The translations under genes were made by a program, and so were the position numbers. Shown piece after piece: positions 1 to 40,908 of a DNA stretch of 42,238 bases. The notes beneath the pieces are model-generated. The model made no database searches and was not told the origin of the DNA. It saw only the letters and a list, made by a program, of their open reading frames with translations. The first letter of the stretch is position 1; the number at the start of each line of letters is the position of its first letter. Source of the DNA: a virus (taxonomy: Duplodnaviria; Heunggongvirae; Uroviricota; Caudoviricetes); the IMG/VR virus record IMGVR_UViG_2703718851_000004, positions 1-42,238 of that record; one strand, given 5' to 3'.

Positions 1-90
1 TCACTCTGCCAGATGGCGCAATGCCATCTGGTATCACTTAAAGGTATTAAAAACAACTTTTTGTCTTTTTACCTTCCCGTTTCGCTCAAG

Positions 91-105
91 TTAGTATAAA
101 AAAGC
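91..105. repeat. attR: att core repeat at int-distal junction (attR-type)
   Basis: TTAGTATAAAAAAGC, reverse complement of lambda core GCTTTTTTATACTAA; identical copy at 40894..40908; host-like flank at 1..90. Confidence 0.9.
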
Positions 106-251
106 TGAACGTGAAACATTAAAAATCATTAATATCAATGCATTACAATATCTTTAGTCTAAAAAATAGACTACATAATGCGACAAAACACAACATATCC
201 AGTCACTATGAATCAACCACTTAGATGGTATTAGTGACCTGTAACAGAGCA

Positions 252-290
252 TTAGCGCAAGGTGATTTTTGTCTTCTTGCGCTAATTTTT
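252..290 (+). terminator. Hairpin plus T-run, terminator-like element between att arm and gtrA
   Basis: Perfect 10-bp stem TTAGCGCAAG/CTTGCGCTAA with 14-nt loop followed by TTTTT. Confidence 0.4.
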
Positions 291-549
291 TGTCAACATA
301 CTGGGTTATCTGAATTTACAACCATGCTCAGTATCTCGATAAGCGCAGAGAAATGATGCAGTGGTGGGCGGACTGGATTGATGAAAAGGTGGAGTGAGGA
401 AACTTAAACACCATCGGATAGCACAAAGCCTTGCAATCCAGTGCAAAGCTTTGTGTGTCTCAGTGTTGTCTCATCAACCACAGCAAGTATCGATCGATTG
501 AGACTTGGATGATAGACTTCATGCCTTTGATTATTAGCTGATAGAAGAA

Positions 550-912
550 ATGTTAAAACTATTTGCAAAGTACACCTCTATTGGCGTGCTGAACACCCTT
601 ATACACTGGGTGGTTTTTGGTGTATGTATCTATGCCGCGCATACCAATCAGGCTCTGGCAAACTTCGCAGGTTTTGTTGTGGCTGTGAGTTTTAGCTTCT
701 TCGCGAATGCAAAATTCACATTCAAAGCATCAACTACAACGATGCGCTACATGTTATATGTCGGGTTCATGGGAACACTGAGTGCTACTGTTGGATGGGC
801 TGCTGATAGATGTTCACTTCCTCCAATTGTCACTCTTGTCACCTTCTCCGCCATCAGCCTGGTGTGCGGTTTCGTCTATTCAAAGTTCATTGTCTTTAGG
901 GATGCGAAATGA
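550..912 (+). CDS. gtrA: GtrA-family bactoprenol-glucose flippase
   Basis: 120-aa hydrophobic ORF with GtrA-like sequence; first gene of three-gene cassette; stop overlaps gtrB start. Confidence 0.85.
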
Positions 913-1838
913 AGATATCTCTGGTCGTTCCTGTCTTCAATGAAGAAGAAGCGATACCAATTTTTTATAAAACGGTACGTGAATTCGAAGAATTGAAGTC
1001 ATATGAAGTGGAAATTGTTTTCATAAATGACGGCAGCAAAGACGCTACGGAGTCAATTATTAATGCTCTGGCTGTGGCCGATCCGCTTGTCGTTCCTCTT
1101 TCCTTCACCCGTAATTTCGGTAAAGAGCCCGCTCTGTTCGCCGGGCTTGACCACGCAACAGGTGATGCGGTTATCCCGATTGATGTTGACCTGCAGGACC
1201 CGATTGAAGTCATTCCTTATCTCATCGAGAAGTGGCAGGCAGGCGCTGACATGGTCCTGGCTAAGCGTTCTGATCGCTCCACCGACAGCAGACTAAAGCG
1301 CAAATCCGCTGAGTGGTTTTATAAGCTGCATAACAAAATAAGCAATCCGCAGATCGAGGAGAACGTCGGTGACTTCCGCCTGATGTCCCGTGCCGTGGTT
1401 GAGAACATCAAACTGTTGCCGGAGCGCAACCTCTTCATGAAGGGCGTTCTGAGTTGGGTTGGAGGGCGTACTGATGTTGTCGAGTATGCTCGCGCTGGGC
1501 GTGTCGCCGGAGACTCAAAATTCAATGGCTGGAAGCTCTGGAACTTGGCACTTGAGGGCATTACTAGCTTCTCAACCTTCCCTCTTCGCATGTGGACTTA
1601 TATTGGCCTGATGGTCGCCGGCCTGTCGTTTCTTTACGGCGCCTGGATGATTATCGACACGTTGGCTTTCGGTAATGCGGTACGTGGTTATCCTTCACTG
1701 TTAGTATCTATTTTGTTTCTGGGCGGAATCCAGTTAATAGGGATAGGTGTTCTTGGTGAGTACATCGGCAGAATTTACACTGAAGTTAAGCAGCGTCCTA
1801 GGTATATTTTGAAGGGCATTAAAAATGAAAAAAAATAA
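909..1838 (+). CDS. gtrB: GtrB bactoprenol glucosyltransferase (GT2 family)
   Basis: 309 aa; N-terminal GT2 motifs ([22 protein letters not shown]) and C-terminal TM helices. Confidence 0.88.
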
Positions 1839-3279
1839 TACTTATCACATCCCATTTATATTAATAGGGTTGTTTTATTTGCCATTCATCATAAACAATC
1901 AACTTTACGTTGATGATATTTTTAGGGCGCAGAATGGTTTTGATGGGTGGTCTCAAAACGGAAGGCCTTTAGCAGATTTGCTGATGCATCTGCTAATGAT
2001 ATCCTCATCCAAGTTACCTGGTTATGGAATATTTGGACAGGTATTATCAGTAGCAGTAATGTCAATGACAGCAATTTTCTATACTCGTCACATACTTGGT
2101 TCGACAAGCGTGGCAGCGTTAATTTGCGCGTCAGGCTTCGCGCTAAGTCCATTTTATATAGAAAACATGCTCTATCAGTACGATAACCTGCCAATGACGC
2201 TTTCACTTTGTGGTGCGGTTGTTGCTTCTGTCTACGCACTTAAAGAAGACAAAATCTACTTTATTGCATCTTTTATTATCATTGCTTTTAGCGCGGCTTT
2301 ATATCAGACATCAATAAATTCATACATAGCTCTTGTGGCAGTAAACTTAATTGTGAAATTAAAAAAATCTAATGACTGCGCAAAGGAAGTTATTATTTTA
2401 GCTTTAAAAGCAATGGCATCTCTCGCCATTGGCATGATTCTTTATTATTTTATAATAAAGGTTGCTTTCCCGATGACTGGAACAAGAGACCAGGCAATAT
2501 CGTTAGATGCGTCACTTATTGATTACTTTGTAAAAAGAATGGTTAGATTTTATACTTTATTAGAATCAAGTCTATCTATCTATTATGTGGCAATATATTT
2601 ATTGACTTTAGCGTTACTGGTAACAACAACCAAACCAAGAGTTTCGTTTTTAAATATCGCGATAATCATAATCTGTATTTCCGTGGTTGCCATATCACCA
2701 ATAGGAATGCTGGCGATTTTCGGTGAATCAGCCATTGCAGCGAGAATGATGATGGGGGCTGTAGGATTAACAGCTTTAATTTTCACCATGATATCCATAA
2801 GCGAAATTAGTAATAATAAAAAATATTTTGCAATCGCTGTCATCGCAATACCTTTATATGTAATTTCATATGGCTTTTCCTTTGCTATCAAAGAGCAGAG
2901 AATTTATGACAAGTCAATTTTATACCTGTCAATTAATGACATCAGAAATAGCTCAGATTACAATATAAATTCGTACATTGTATATTCTGGCAGGGCGCCA
3001 ATAGCTCCCTTATCGATAAATACTGTAAAAGCATATCCATTAATCTCTACAATGTTGGTTCCAACATATGATTGGACGTCTAGCATGGCTGCCCAGTCAA
3101 TCGACATCCCAAATGTAAAATTCAATTTTGCTAGAGAAGAACAGAAAAAGATAATATCCAATGTATGTGCATCTATAACCAAGCCAATAAAATCCACCAA
3201 TTCTTATTCGATATATTTCAACCAAGAAAACAATGGCTTTTTAATATGGTTAAAAGGAGGAGGCAACACCCCGTGCTGA
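1825..3279 (+). CDS. gtrC: GtrC-type serotype-specific O-antigen glucosyltransferase (polytopic membrane protein)
   Basis: 484-aa multi-TM ORF directly after gtrB, start overlaps gtrB stop; markedly AT-rich relative to flanks. Confidence 0.7.
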
Positions 3280-3312
3280 AGTAATTTGGGCGGCATCGCC
3301 GCCCATTAGTGC

Positions 3313-5472
3313 TTACGTCGAGTAGGTAAATGGCGGCTGCTCCTCCAGTGGAACAACTTTTAACCTATTAAGTGAGTAATATGCAGAGTTTCCGGTAAAG
3401 GTGAGAGTCAACACCCCCGTTGTTGAATTAAAGCTTGCAGATGGTGCTGGTATGGTAGATGTTCCAACTAAGCTTCTGCCTTGATATCCAGTAACGCTGC
3501 AAACATTACCCACCAAAACATTAAATCTTAAATCTTGCTGTAATGTTACAGCCACATTTTTCATTAGAAGCCTGCATGAGTATTCTCCCCCTGCCACACA
3601 ATTGCTTACCTGTATATCGAATGTGTTTGCTCCTTGAGCGATTGAAGGTGAACGCATGGTGTACACATCAAGAAGCCCTTTAAATTGGACTGTATAACCT
3701 CTCAACGGCGCTAAAGTATCAGCTATATTTTCTGTAATTGGATGCTCGCAATTTATTTTGATTCCATAACGCCCGAAGCCAAGATCTTTGGTAATCAATT
3801 TAAATGGTGATCCAATCTTCATGTCGTGAACATTGATCTGTGAGATATCAGTCTTGACTACCGCCCCACTTGACAGTGTGTTTCCAGATTGAACAGCAAA
3901 ATCTTTTATATCATGGTTGCAGAAAACACCGAACGTATTAATAGTTGACCCCACGCACTGACACCAAACTCGGTGACCAGTCTCGCTGGCGGCTACATTT
4001 ACACTCTCACTATAACCTCCGAAAACATTAACGTTACCACTATAAAAGAGGGCGAAATCTCGATTGTACCCCTCCCATGTTACTCCGTGCATATTTATGT
4101 CGACACAGTCGTGGGCATAGAGAAAAGTGGTGACATAGGCAATATTTGGTCTATTTGATACATCTCCGGATCTGTGGAACCATTGTGCCGTGCCTTTATC
4201 CCATGTTTGCGATAAATTACCAGTATAATATCCTCCTACCAAGTTTAGTGCCGTAGTGTGGGGTGTTAAAAATGTTGCATATTTAGCGCCTTGTGCAAAG
4301 CAATTCTCTACCGCAGTCCCCCAAGAACCACTTATCCAAAAGCTAACCTTACAGTCATACACTGCAACTCCAATCAGTTTGGCATCCGGAGTCCTCCAGA
4401 TTCTAATTCCCGCCTGCGTATCTGGACGGCCCAATAAAACAATATTCTCTATATATGGTCCATAATATCCAGCACTCAAATACAGCCCATTTTCCACACT
4501 GTTTGTCACTGTATATCTTGCAGTGCCGTCTGATAGCCATGGAGCGGTATCTAGAAGCAATTTATTTACATCCATGGACGTCATAGCAATAATAATTGAG
4601 CATCCTGCGCGTGAATATCTAAAGCCAGACGTTCCTCCCGTGCCAATTACCCTTACATTTGGAGAGAGATAAATAGTGTCATTAATGAAGTATTGAGCAG
4701 TTGGAAAAACAACATCCCCGCCTTGATGTGAGTCATATGAGGCATCAAGGTAAGGGTTTAGATATGAAATCGCAGCATTGATAGCTGGCGCGCAGTCGAA
4801 GGTACTATCGTTAATTTTTGCCCCAAACTCCAACGGACTCACCGTCCTTGCGACATACGCAGAGGATATCTCTCGCTTCCAGCGTCCTGTTCCAGTATTG
4901 CCAGTTGGGTTAATGGTATAGCCTCCGTCATCAGTATCAGTGCTGGTTGAATTCCAGCGGAAATATCCTCCGCCATAACCAGTTCCAAGGTGATAAGAAT
5001 CAACATAGACTCTTCCATTTTCCTTAACTGATGAGTATGCAGTAAATGCTCGTAGATCTGCTATTGATGAGAATGTACCAAATAATGCATAAGAATCAGG
5101 CGCAGACATCTTGGCAAGCCATTCTGCAGAAAACTGATCCGGGTCATACTTCAGCACATTAGGAAAATAGAACTGCTGCACACCGTATGCATCATAAACA
5201 GCCATCGAATGGCCTTGCACAGTTACGAACTTGGCAATCTGTCCGTTATATACCGGGTAACCAGCAGCGTTAATGATGATTGGTTGCGAAACAGGAACGT
5301 GAGATCCGTCTTCATTCTCTACATAAACCTGAATCTGGTTTTCAGTATTTACCGGGTCAGTGTCAATTTTTCCGATATAAATTTTGCCATTGGCTACGGC
5401 TTTAAAAGAACGAGCCATAGTGAAGAGTTGCGAAGGCATCGATACAATCACATTAGCTGTAATATCTGTCAT
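3313..5472 (-). CDS. Tailspike protein; P22-type N-terminal head-binding domain with divergent receptor-binding domain
   Basis: 719 aa; first ~110 residues match P22 gp9 head-binding domain from memory (MTDITANV...[11 protein letters not shown]...LKYDPDQ); last gene of virion module. Confidence 0.88.
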
Positions 5473-5927: not shown

Positions 5928-6278
5928 GATATGTCGCTCGCAGAACTCAACAAGCCTGCTCATTAAGTAGCAGTAAGTCTCGTTGGCTCTTCCTGGTTCA
6001 ACATCAACACCTACCCTTGAGCAGATATCGAATGCCATGTGAGCACACTCATGGGCAATAGTAGATAGTTTGCCATTGAACACGCCTATCACATGCAAAA
6101 CACCATTCTCGCTGCTCATTGTATGAGACGCTCCGTTGGCATCCGAGTCCTGCACGTCCACACCAAGTTTTTGATGCAGGCGTTGCCATTCTGGAAAGTC
6201 TCTACAAAACACAATTGTACCGCTCTCAAAGAGCGGAACGAGCATCTTTGGTACGTTTCCAATGTTAACTTTTTTCAT
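5913..6278 (-). CDS. Hypothetical 121-aa protein with HExxH zinc-metallopeptidase motif (mini-zincin-like)
   Basis: ORF with AGGA RBS; motif [11 protein letters not shown] (H76-E77-x-x-H80) with glutamates 14-20 residues downstream. Confidence 0.55.
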
Positions 6279-6308
6279 GGTATCCTGCGTAAAACTAAGG
6301 AGGTTGGT

Positions 6309-6803
6309 GTGTCTGATTCTATGAGTTACGCTGTGCTAGTTGCCGCAACTCTATTTCTGGGGATAGGGTTGCAGATTGCGTGGTTCTTTTTTTCTAGTTT
6401 TATTAAACGTAAAAGAATTGAATCAAGGATATCTGAGATTTCTATTGCTATAGGGAAAAATGCTGAAAATCCAGAGAATGAGGCCTGCGCACTGAATTAC
6501 CTTAAAGAAAAGTTTTCCCCTGAAAAATTTGAAAACAGAATTACTGATGCTCTTGGATTGGTAATATCAGTAATTCATATGCCACTAAGTTTACTGATAA
6601 CAGTGTGGTACTTCGCCATGATCGCCGGAAGAATATTTGGTTTCATGAATATAGATCCTGTAGTTCTTTGGGTTCCAATGATACTGCAATTGTTGTTAAG
6701 CGTTGCTATCTTTATTTTTTCTGTTTTTATAAAAATTGTCTTTGGAAGATACCCCGGAGAAGCGAAGGGATTTAATAAAGAATTCATAAAAACTATAAAA
6801 TAA
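6309..6803 (+). CDS. Hypothetical AT-rich integral membrane protein (about 4 TM segments); start GTG 6309 or ATG 6321
   Basis: AAGGAGG RBS at 6296..6302; four long hydrophobic stretches; AT-rich; divergent from the HExxH gene. The 6093 upstream extension of the ORF is judged non-coding. Confidence 0.6.
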
Positions 6804-22714: not shown

Positions 22715-22790
22715 TGGTGCTGGTTAACGGACTTGAACCGCTACCCATTCGCTTACAAGGCGACTGCTCTACCATTGGAGCTAAACCAGC
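22715..22790 (-). tRNA. tRNA-Thr (anticodon UGU)
   Basis: 76-nt cloverleaf: 7-bp acceptor GCTGGTT/AACCAGC, D-stem GCTC/GAGC, anticodon loop CTTGTAA, T-loop TTCAAGT, encoded CCA; one G-A mismatch at top of anticodon stem. Confidence 0.65.
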
Positions 22791-22795
22791 ATGTT

Positions 22796-22869
22796 TGGCG
22801 GGACAGCGTGGACTCGAACCACGATAAGAAGTTAACAGCCTTCCGTAATGACCTTTATACGACTGACCC
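22796..22869 (-). tRNA. tRNA-like element with Asn-type anticodon loop (possibly degenerate)
   Basis: T-arm CGTGG-TTCGAGT-CCACG, encoded CCA, loop CTGTTAA (GUU); but T-T mismatch in acceptor stem, weak anticodon stem and 3-nt variable region. Confidence 0.35.
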
Positions 22870-39553: not shown

Positions 39554-39772
39554 ATGTACTTGACACTTCAGGAGTGGAACGCTCGCCAGCGACGTCCAAG
39601 AAGCCTTGAAACAGTTCGTCGATGGGTACGCGAATGCAGGATATTCCCTCCTCCGGTTAAGGATGGAAGAGAGTATCTGTTCCACGAATCAGCGGTAAAG
39701 GTTGACTTAAATCGACCAGTAACAGGTAGCCTTTTGAAGAGGATCAGAAATGGGAAGAAGGCGAAGTCATGA
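39554..39772 (+). CDS. xis: Excisionase Xis
   Basis: 72 aa MYLTLQEWNARQRRPRSLETVRRWVRECRIFPPPVKDGREYLFHESAV..., matches lambda Xis from memory; overlaps int start. Confidence 0.95.
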   Translation: MYLTLQEWNARQRRPRSLETVRRWVRECRIFPPPVKDGREYLFHESAVKVDLNRPVTGSLLKRIRNGKKAKS

Positions 39773-40820
39773 GCGCCGGGATTTACCCCCTAACCTTTAT
39801 ATAAGAAACAATGGATATTACTGCTACAGGGACCCAAGGACTGGTAAAGAGTTCGGATTAGGCAGAGACAGGAGGATAGCAATTACTGAAGCAATACAGG
39901 CAAACATTGAGTTATTTTCAGGACACAAACACAAGCCTCTGACAGCGAGAATCAACAGTGATAATTCTGTTACGTTACATTCATGGCTTGATCGCTACGA
40001 AAAAATCCTCGCCAGCAGAGGAATCAAGCAGAAGACACTCATAAATTACATGAGCAAAATTAAAGCAATAAGGAGGTGCCTGCCTGATGCTCCACTTGAA
40101 GACATCACCACAAAAGAAATTGCGGCAATGCTCAATGGATACATAGACGAGGGCAAGGCGGCGTCAGCCAAGTTAATCAGATCAACACTGAGCGATGCAT
40201 TCCGAGAGGCAATAGCTGAAGGCCATATAACAACAAACCCGGTCGCTGCCACTCGCGCAGCAAAATCAGAGGTAAGGAGATCAAGACTTACAGCTGACGA
40301 ATACCTGAAAATTTATCAAGCAGCAGAATCATCACCATGTTGGCTCAGACTTGCAATGGAACTGGCTGTTGTTACCGGGCAGCGAGTTGGTGATTTATGC
40401 GAAATGAAGTGGTCTGATATCGTAGATGGATATCTTTATGTCGAGCAAAGCAAAACAGGCGTAAAAATTGCCATCCCTACAACATTGCATGTTGATGCTC
40501 TCGGGATATCAATGAAGGAAACACTTGATAAATGCAAAGAGATTCTTGGCGGAGAAACCATAATTGCATCTACTCGTCGTGAACCGCTTTCATCCGGCAC
40601 AGTATCAAGGTATTTTATGCGCGCACGAAAAGCATCAGGTCTTTCCTTCGAAGGGGATCCGCCAACCTTTCACGAGTTGCGCAGTTTGTCTGCAAGACTC
40701 TATGAGAAGCAGATAAGCGATAAGTTTGCTCAACATCTTCTCGGGCATAAGTCGGACACCATGGCATCACAGTATCGTGATGACAGAGGCAGGGAGTGGG
40801 ACAAAATTGAAATCAAATAA
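39750..40820 (+). CDS. int: Tyrosine integrase Int
   Basis: 356 aa, near-identical to lambda Int from memory (MGRRRSHERRDLPPNLYIRNNGYYCYRDPRTGKEF...). Confidence 0.97.
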   Translation: MGRRRSHERRDLPPNLYIRNNGYYCYRDPRTGKEFGLGRDRRIAITEAIQANIELFSGHKHKPLTARINSDNSVTLHSWLDRYEKILASRGIKQKTLINYMSKIKAIRRCLPDAPLEDITTKEIAAMLNGYIDEGKAASAKLIRSTLSDAFREAIAEGHITTNPVAATRAAKSEVRRSRLTADEYLKIYQAAESSPCWLRLAMELAVVTGQRVGDLCEMKWSDIVDGYLYVEQSKTGVKIAIPTTLHVDALGISMKETLDKCKEILGGETIIASTRREPLSSGTVSRYFMRARKASGLSFEGDPPTFHELRSLSARLYEKQISDKFAQHLLGHKSDTMASQYRDDRGREWDKIEIK

Positions 40821-40893: not shown

Positions 40894-40908
40894 TTAGTAT
40901 AAAAAAGC
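40894..40908. repeat. attL: att core repeat at int-proximal junction (attL-type)
   Basis: TTAGTATAAAAAAGC; phage side 40821..40893 matches the lambda P' arm from memory; identical core at 91..105. Confidence 0.9.

Follow-up and report, generated by a model that had tools for sequence, protein, structure and literature searches.

The 42,238-nt stretch of DNA analysed here (the window; IMG/VR record IMGVR_UViG_2703718851_000004) contains a 40.8-kb P22-like prophage with a lambda integration module at the E. coli attachment site attB-lambda. The end of the prophage that forms attR carries the three genes of interest, gtrA, gtrB and gtrC, which together resemble the O-antigen glucosylation (serotype conversion) operons of other phages; two hairpins lie upstream of them, and a tailspike gene converges on them from the other side. 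From left to right the features are:

1-90: bacterial B' DNA from downstream of ybhB, left of the attR core
91-105, minus strand: attR core, an exact match to the lambda att core GCTTTTTTATACTAA
106-243, plus strand: lambda-type attP P arm with the Int arm-binding region (87-96% identity to lambda, HK97 and 434)
244-293, plus strand: sib/tI, int retroregulator and intrinsic terminator, invariant with lambda, HK97 and 434
314-397, plus strand: 3' remnant of an integrase gene of the IntS/Hf4s (argW) type, the last 27 codons and stop, preceded by an in-frame stop
416-460, plus strand: second conserved hairpin upstream of gtrA (dG -23.7, z -4.1)
461-549, plus strand: conserved gtrA leader and presumed promoter region, from alignment with relatives
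550-912, plus strand: gtrA, predicted undecaprenyl-phosphate (Und-P)-glucose flippase subunit, 120 aa (PF04138 GtrA_DPMS_TM, E 1.8e-13)
909-1838, plus strand: gtrB, predicted bactoprenol (Und-P) glucosyltransferase of family GT2, 309 aa (PF00535 Glycos_transf_2, E 3.5e-30)
1100-4760: recently exchanged block, from mismatch profiles; the 3' two-thirds of gtrB, gtrC, and the part of the tailspike gene for aa ~238-719
1825-3279, plus strand: gtrC, GT-C-fold glucosyltransferase, predicted to be acceptor-specific, 484 aa (PF14264 Glucos_trans_II, E 2.3e-32)
1830-5131: variable cassette of gtrC and the tailspike receptor-binding domain (RBD); sibling prophages at attB-lambda have a different one in its place
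3287-3305: GC-rich hairpin (GGGCGGC atc GCCGCCC) between the convergent gtrC and tailspike stops (fold z -3.6 on the plus strand, -2.7 on the minus)
3313-5472, minus strand: P22-type tailspike gene, 719 aa, convergent with gtrC

The three gtr open reading frames (ORFs) are intact and co-directional, and overlap to form one operon: gtrA and gtrB share an ATGA (909-912), and gtrB and gtrC overlap by 14 nt. GtrA is 98% identical to that of phage Hf4s, 97% to YfdG of E. coli K-12, 91-92% to those of the Shigella flexneri (Sf) phages and 79% to that of P22; GtrB is 88-93% identical to its counterparts in SfI, SfII, SfIV, SfV, K-12 (YfdH), P22 and Hf4s. Since GtrB is closely related to GtrB proteins that have been tested, the sugar donor is almost certainly Und-P-glucose. 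The GC content is 0.446 in gtrA, 0.478 in gtrB, and 0.352 in gtrC. An initial reading of the window by sequence inspection without database searches (the sequence-only reading) had described a gtrABC cassette in which gtrA and gtrB are conserved and gtrC, of 484 aa, is AT-rich and polytopic, and had placed it next to attR and opposite the tailspike gene; ORFs, Pfam matches, base composition and identities all agree with this, as do the positions of the att core and of the minus-strand tailspike gene.

As expected of a GtrC, the third protein is a predicted polytopic inner-membrane GT-C glycosyltransferase encoded immediately downstream of gtrB. Its closest characterised relative is P22 GtrC (24.8% identity over 467 aa, E 5e-26), which is also its sole significant pairwise match: none was found to GtrI, GtrII, GtrIV, GtrV, K-12 YfdI/GtrS or Hf4s GtrC. 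No near-identical characterised GtrC was thus encountered, the best being P22 at 25%, in a comparison that did not take GtrX, GtrIc or the chromosomal families of Salmonella one by one; to this extent, the suggestion of a novel specificity survives. The best match in 50,697 phage records has at most 28.5% identity, and 5,426 complete E. coli genomes contain no copy of gtrC, at blastn sensitivity included. In a set of 5.8 billion protein clusters, GtrC has only its own cluster (~99%) and relatives at 77, 57, 51, 49, and 48% identity; an exhaustive HMMER scan found 972 members of the family, with only two representative clusters above 30%. Two large protein collections held no foreign cluster more than 77% identical to GtrC, and no name implying a known specificity. 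By these comparisons, GtrC belongs to a small, rare and uncharacterised clade, to which specificity cannot be transferred at 25% identity; the clade probably marks an E. coli O-antigen variant absent from the current structural catalogue.

By sequence and model, the GtrC protein looks functional. All residues invariant in the family (in a 90-sequence alignment) are kept: D30, D31, R34, P109, D120, Q161, and Y207. The AlphaFold model is of high confidence (predicted local distance difference test, pLDDT, 93; predicted template modelling score, pTM, 0.93). A sequence search of the Protein Data Bank (PDB) with GtrC gave no match, and the GT-C fold comes from fold searches. In GT-C enzymes the catalytic acid sits in the first loop after the first transmembrane helix (TM1); the DD motif of GtrC lies in this loop of the model, and may be the catalytic site.

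The low GC content of gtrC was also considered as a sign of unusual origin or novelty, and rejected: the same drop is seen in the 11 other gtr operons examined (gtrC 0.28-0.41), and because every gtrC examined is AT-rich, composition is not evidence of novelty. Of the earlier proposal that an AT-rich gtrC had been swapped in and was new, the swap stands, in the form of replacement of gtrC and the RBD as one unit, while the argument from composition does not.

Taken together, these observations make it likely that the intact gtrABC operon is the lysogenic-conversion module of a P22-like attB-lambda prophage, with an uncharacterised and rare GtrC, an exchangeable gtrC and RBD, and an upstream hairpin that is lambda sib/tI. 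The mechanism can be drawn from the established Gtr pathway (PMC11194591, PMC2629481), because GtrA and GtrB are 88-98% identical to those of tested systems. GtrB would make Und-P-glucose from uridine diphosphate (UDP)-glucose at the cytoplasmic face of the inner membrane, GtrA would flip it to the periplasm, and GtrC would attach the glucose to a single, defined sugar within the host O-antigen repeat. The serotype would change, and adsorption of phages using that O-antigen, including those of its own kind, would probably be blocked. In K-12, O16 receives its glucose (Glc) side chain from GtrABS, which also blocks phages (PMC11990801). Prophage gtr operons alter the O-antigen without altering the O-antigen gene cluster, and they confound sequence-based serotyping, prediction of host range for phage therapy, and coverage of glycoconjugate vaccines.

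The tailspike gene has the P22-like (Lederbergvirus-type) organization, a head-binding domain followed by a beta-helix RBD. The head-binding domain (PF09008 on aa 1-113, E 1.6e-65) is encoded at ~5134-5472, and the neck and beta-helix RBD from 3313 to ~5131; a pectate-lyase-like match (PF12708) is sub-threshold, at 25.6 bits against a cut-off of 27. Residues 1-117 are 94-97% identical to those of HK620 and CUS-3. In the phage records only aa 1 to ~310 match anything; the remainder (aa ~310-719, 3313 to ~4540) has no counterpart in the 50,697 phage genomes, nor at megablast level in the 5,426 complete E. coli genomes. Homologues of this distal RBD bear source names such as GH55 or GH28-related. 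The hairpin between the two stop codons (3287-3305) has a 7-8 bp stem and no T-run on either strand; P22 has an annotated terminator in the equivalent position.

The evidence for exchange comes from other prophages. The identical 484-aa GtrC is found on nine contigs in three contexts, with a 98.8% copy in a fourth:

Context 1: P22-like prophages at attB-lambda, including the window
Context 2: P22-like prophages at the IntS site
Context 3: epsilon15-like E. coli prophages beside ppk-ppx, with structural genes at 83% nucleotide identity to epsilon15
Context 4: a long-tailed prophage type with a tape-measure gene, beside rsmF, with the 98.8% copy

Compared with the epsilon15-like copy, the window is 99.9% identical over the block from ~1100 to ~4760, with one mismatch in gtrC and 8 in the 1.5 kb of the tailspike gene. 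Outside it, nucleotide identity is 75% in gtrA and 67% in the tailspike gene beyond 4760. At the protein level, the two tailspikes are nearly the same from ~aa 237 up to the C-terminus (a handful of substitutions), while their N-terminal anchors are unrelated. The long-tailed prophage is ~99% identical from ~1350, and its right-hand boundary is the same as that of the epsilon15-like copy. Conversely, in the sibling attB-lambda prophages of three complete E. coli genomes (L025, L026, and L027), similarity to the window is confined to 1-1829/1842 and 5132/5138-5487, and the interval between is filled by unrelated gtrC and RBD sequences. Because the block is shared across contexts and is replaced whole in siblings, gtrC and the tailspike RBD are, in these alignments, a single exchangeable unit that has moved between phage types; the conserved gtrB on one side and the tailspike neck and head-binding region on the other act as its recombination arms.

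In Salmonella, gtr operons are already known to move from one phage type to another (PMC2629481), and exchange of RBDs between Lederbergvirus and Uetakevirus prophages is known as well (PMC10408124). In contrast to the latter, the exchanged DNA here takes in gtrC and a portion of gtrB, in a single block of 99.9% identity, and a third, tape-measure-bearing prophage type also carries it. The new detail, as far as the compared sequences indicate, is that gtrC and the RBD move in one block. It follows that finding one predicts the other, and the block offers a way to match a depolymerase to the modification by which it is defeated.

Whether GtrC acts on the receptor of the adjacent tailspike, as the sequence-only reading thought probable, is a separate question, for which the genetic linkage is indirect support. 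From the GtrC side, the association is consistent: all relatives at least 48% identical with a readable neighbour are beside a homologous RBD, from a family of 35 clusters. Identities to the GtrC of the window, with those of the adjacent RBD, are:

GtrC 77%: adjacent tailspike identical at 55 of its last 58 residues
GtrC 57%: adjacent RBD 89% identical
GtrC 51%: adjacent RBD 59% identical
GtrC 49%: adjacent RBD 60% identical
GtrC 48% (Yersinia kristensenii): adjacent RBD 58% identical
GtrC 29%: adjacent RBD unrelated
GtrC 25% (P22): adjacent RBD unrelated

These pairings invite the idea that gtrC and the RBD form a portable "receptor cassette," whose halves act on one O-antigen (the RBD cutting or binding it, GtrC masking it) and which is moved intact by recombination in gtrB and the tailspike neck across three virion architectures (P22-like, epsilon15-like, and long-tailed) and four chromosomal sites. 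It is offered tentatively, as a possibility deserving a little less than even weight. If true, such a cassette would re-programme host range and self-exclusion in a single event. That GtrC and the RBD share a substrate is plausible by analogy, because of the precedents of P22, Hf4s, and K-12 GtrABS; with its gtr cluster, Hf4s protects its lysogens against further Hf4s (preprint 10.1101/2021.06.09.447823).

Several observations weigh against a shared substrate. A common E. coli tailspike with an RBD ~60% identical lies beside a GtrC only 22.5% identical. In a P22-like sibling at attB-lambda (L034, 7198-9090), an RBD at 64% is accompanied by a 630-aa gene of the Acyl_transf_3/SGNH acetyltransferase type, which replaces gtrABC, with no gtrAB. 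A GtrC relative at 41%, on a short contig, is followed by an acyltransferase. A strict co-divergence of GtrC and RBD was therefore rejected: it is good from the GtrC side, but weakened by these reciprocal look-ups from the RBD side. The linkage, judged by the neighbours found, is real, but neither exclusive nor reciprocal, and adjacency may reflect linkage rather than a common substrate.

The alternative to which these observations lead is that GtrC is active on an acceptor that has no connection with the neighbouring tailspike's receptor; gtrC and the tailspike gene would then travel together only as neighbours between conserved recombination substrates (gtrB and the tailspike neck). This would account for RBD homologues at 60-64% being paired with a GtrC of another clade (22.5%) or with an O-acetyltransferase, and it agrees with the location of the recombination end-points in conserved flanks. 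It does less well with the constancy of the pairing in the other direction, where a GtrC at 48% identity or above with a readable neighbour is always beside this RBD family, through three types of tailspike N-terminal anchor and two host genera; and self-exclusion has experimental precedents in both P22 and Hf4s. On balance, it seems unlikely, although it is the strongest of the alternatives.

One sequencing run, ERR6160569, contains two prophages with related RBDs and different gtrC genes. The first (L004) is epsilon15-like, with the gtrC and RBD cassette of the window. The second (L031) is P22-like, at the IntS site, with an RBD ~60% and a gtrC 22.5% identical; it lacks gtrA and has a truncated gtrB (139 aa), and GtrC could therefore work there only with GtrA and GtrB supplied in trans. 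By analogy, the pair hints at a stepwise process, in which modification of the O-antigen is followed by adaptation of the tailspike. The Salmonella series from epsilon15 to epsilon34 is a precedent for such steps.

A second alternative to a working conversion module is that the gtr operon is mere cargo, silent or in decay, and leaves the cell surface unchanged. The upstream region offers some grounds for this. There is no match to the sigma-70 consensus on the plus strand in 1-549, and manual inspection before gtrA turned up just weak 7/12 candidates, none of which is claimed as a promoter. Two terminator-like hairpins precede the operon, and in related prophages (L031 and L032) gtrA and gtrB are sometimes deleted or truncated. 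Like the unreciprocated RBD pairings, the missing promoter consensus and the hairpins count against the conversion module favoured here. However, the three ORFs of the window are intact and translationally coupled, and GtrC keeps the family-invariant residues. The protein is also 100% conserved over three contexts, against a nucleotide identity down to 75% for gtrA; an identical 484-aa sequence, shared by nine contigs from three chromosomal and phage settings, argues for selection on the GtrC protein. A silent operon is accordingly improbable.

A gtr promoter is to be expected within the 89 conserved bp that precede gtrA. The Sf phages share this leader and the hairpin in front of it (window 425-549), and the hairpin (416-460) is kept in CPS-53 of K-12, SfII, SfV, and P22; in SfII it is annotated as a putative rho-independent terminator. 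No known RNA families were found in window 1-3400. In P22, two pairs of GATC sites, four in all, overlap OxyR half-sites in the gtr promoter region, within the ~115 bp that precede gtrA (PMC2909390). In an alignment of regions upstream of gtrA, the 87-bp P22 insert that carries these sites is missing from the window, which has a single GATC (492-495) in 1-1079. Dam/OxyR phase variation of the Salmonella and P22 type was rejected on these two grounds, and the promoter would accordingly be of some other type. GATC is depleted over the whole window (1-42238): there are 96 sites, against 169 +/- 13 expected, and 100 of 100 dinucleotide-preserving shuffles had more.

The hairpin nearest the attachment site has a different origin. 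It consists of a 12-bp inner stem (251-262/275-286) followed by TTTTTT at 286-291, with an outer 6-bp stem that pairs 244-249 with 288-293, using the U-tract. The fold is stable (-23.7 kcal/mol, z = -5.7), and none of 200 shuffles was equally so. In the orientation of int transcription, window 95-301 aligns with the P-arm side of attP in lambda (87%), HK97 (96%) and 434 (91%), and across 244-294 the four sequences are invariant; the same stretch is annotated as "sib retroregulation site" in HK97 and "terminator" in 434. A hairpin and U-run beyond the P arm, in the direction of int transcription and with an outer stem, are what is expected of sib/tI. Since the outer stem needs the U-tract, it forms only in read-through RNA. 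In lambda, formation of the outer stem in read-through int RNA, with decay of that mRNA through RNase III cleavage, is how sib works. The hairpin at 252-290 can therefore be identified, at the level of sequence, with the lambda sib/tI integrase retroregulator. The sequence-only reading was right that a hairpin and T-run are present here (it had counted a 10-bp stem), but not in attaching them to gtrA. That they are an attenuator or terminator evolved for gtrA, as it implied, is very improbable: the hairpin does sit 260 bp 5' of gtrA in the same orientation, but base for base it is the sib/tI of lambda, HK97, and 434, phages whose corresponding locus contains no gtr genes, and it is lacking both from IntS-site prophages with an identical gtr operon (homology to the window begins at 314) and from the epsilon15-like and long-tailed contexts (homology begins at 544-549).

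As in lambda, the prophage state separates sib from int, here by the whole genome. In the excised phage, sib/tI would terminate and retroregulate int transcripts; in the prophage, it could act only as an insulator against read-through from ybhB. What the element shares with lambda is the sequence of the hairpin and U-run and the way it is placed and oriented with respect to the P arm, to the att core, and to an Int 99% identical to that of lambda. The far-side neighbour differs: in lambda it is the b region, and here it is the gtr operon with an integrase stump. The re-assignment is a caution that regulatory-looking elements beside morons can belong to the adjacent integration module.

The stump explains the juxtaposition. 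The translation of its 84 nt (314-397), IYNHAQYLDKRREMMQWWADWIDEKVE followed by the stop, is identical to the C-terminus of K-12 IntS at 26 of 27 residues, and PGAP annotates it as a partial pseudo-CDS (coding sequence) in sibling prophages. Three prophages at the IntS site (L007-L009) have a full 385-aa integrase directly upstream of gtrA, and share 99.9-100% identity with the window over the 7-8 kb that begin at position 314. Because of the stump and this near-identity, the phage of the window is a recombinant, in which a lambda int-att-sib module replaced the IntS integrase, with the joint at ~301-313; sib/tI is beside gtrA because the lambda int-att module was joined there to an IntS-type int-gtr module. 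The upstream region preserves two integration modules as fossils, the IntS-type one with a conserved hairpin of its own (416-460) after the stump. The same joint between sib and stump is found in phage 434 (window 305-333; ~1715-1745 in L002), and JEP4, ev099, Huey, and PhiR70_1 also match across it. Its presence in 434 implies that the scar predates this prophage and has spread among lambdoid phages.

Among known systems, the closest in organization are Hf4s and the K-12 cryptic prophage CPS-53 (yfdG-yfdH-yfdI). Both have the order int-gtrA-gtrB-gtrC, convergent with a tail gene; GtrA is 97-98% and GtrB 89-93% identical, and the window retains the last 84 nt of their type of integrase gene. 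It differs from them in its GtrC, which has no detectable pairwise similarity to YfdI/GtrS or Hf4s GtrC, and in integration, by lambda Int at attB-lambda here and by IntS at argW there. O-antigen modification and phage blocking have been shown experimentally for both, whereas here they are predicted from sequence. The P22 gtrABC operon (O1 conversion) shares the layout of tailspike, gtrC-gtrB-gtrA, and att in a P22-like virion module, and the terminator-like hairpin between gtrC and tailspike; it differs in the Dam/OxyR insert with four GATC sites, and the tailspike RBDs are unrelated. In S. flexneri phages SfI, SfII, SfIV, and SfV, GtrA (91-92%) and GtrB (90-93%) are again close, and the type-specific gtr gene is AT-rich in all. 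However, GtrI, GtrII, GtrIV, and GtrV have no significant pairwise similarity to the GtrC of the window, integration is at thrW, and the annotated far-side neighbours of gtr(type) are tail-fibre or transposase genes rather than a tailspike gene.

The frame of the prophage is well defined. There are exactly two copies of the lambda core GCTTTTTTATACTAA in the window (chance expectation 0), the second at 40894-40908, and a lambda-type integrase gene, 99% identical to lambda Int, at 39750-40820. The lambda annotation places the "int 1," "int 2," and "int 3" binding sites under the P-arm match. L005, a contig whose sequence is the same as the window's over its first 12 kb, continues leftward from position 1 directly into bioA-ybhB, so the left end of the window is attR, and the gtr operon is next to the attachment site, as expected of a Gtr system. 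P22-like virion genes of the prophage include gp16, gp7, and genes for injection proteins. Just beyond the tailspike gene, at 6309-6803 (plus strand, inside ORF 6093-6803), is a superinfection-exclusion gene of the SieA family (PF26849), so the prophage probably has a second, O-antigen-independent exclusion system. It also carries two adjacent tRNA genes, tRNA-Thr(TGT) and tRNA-Asn(GTT), at 22715-22869 on the minus strand.

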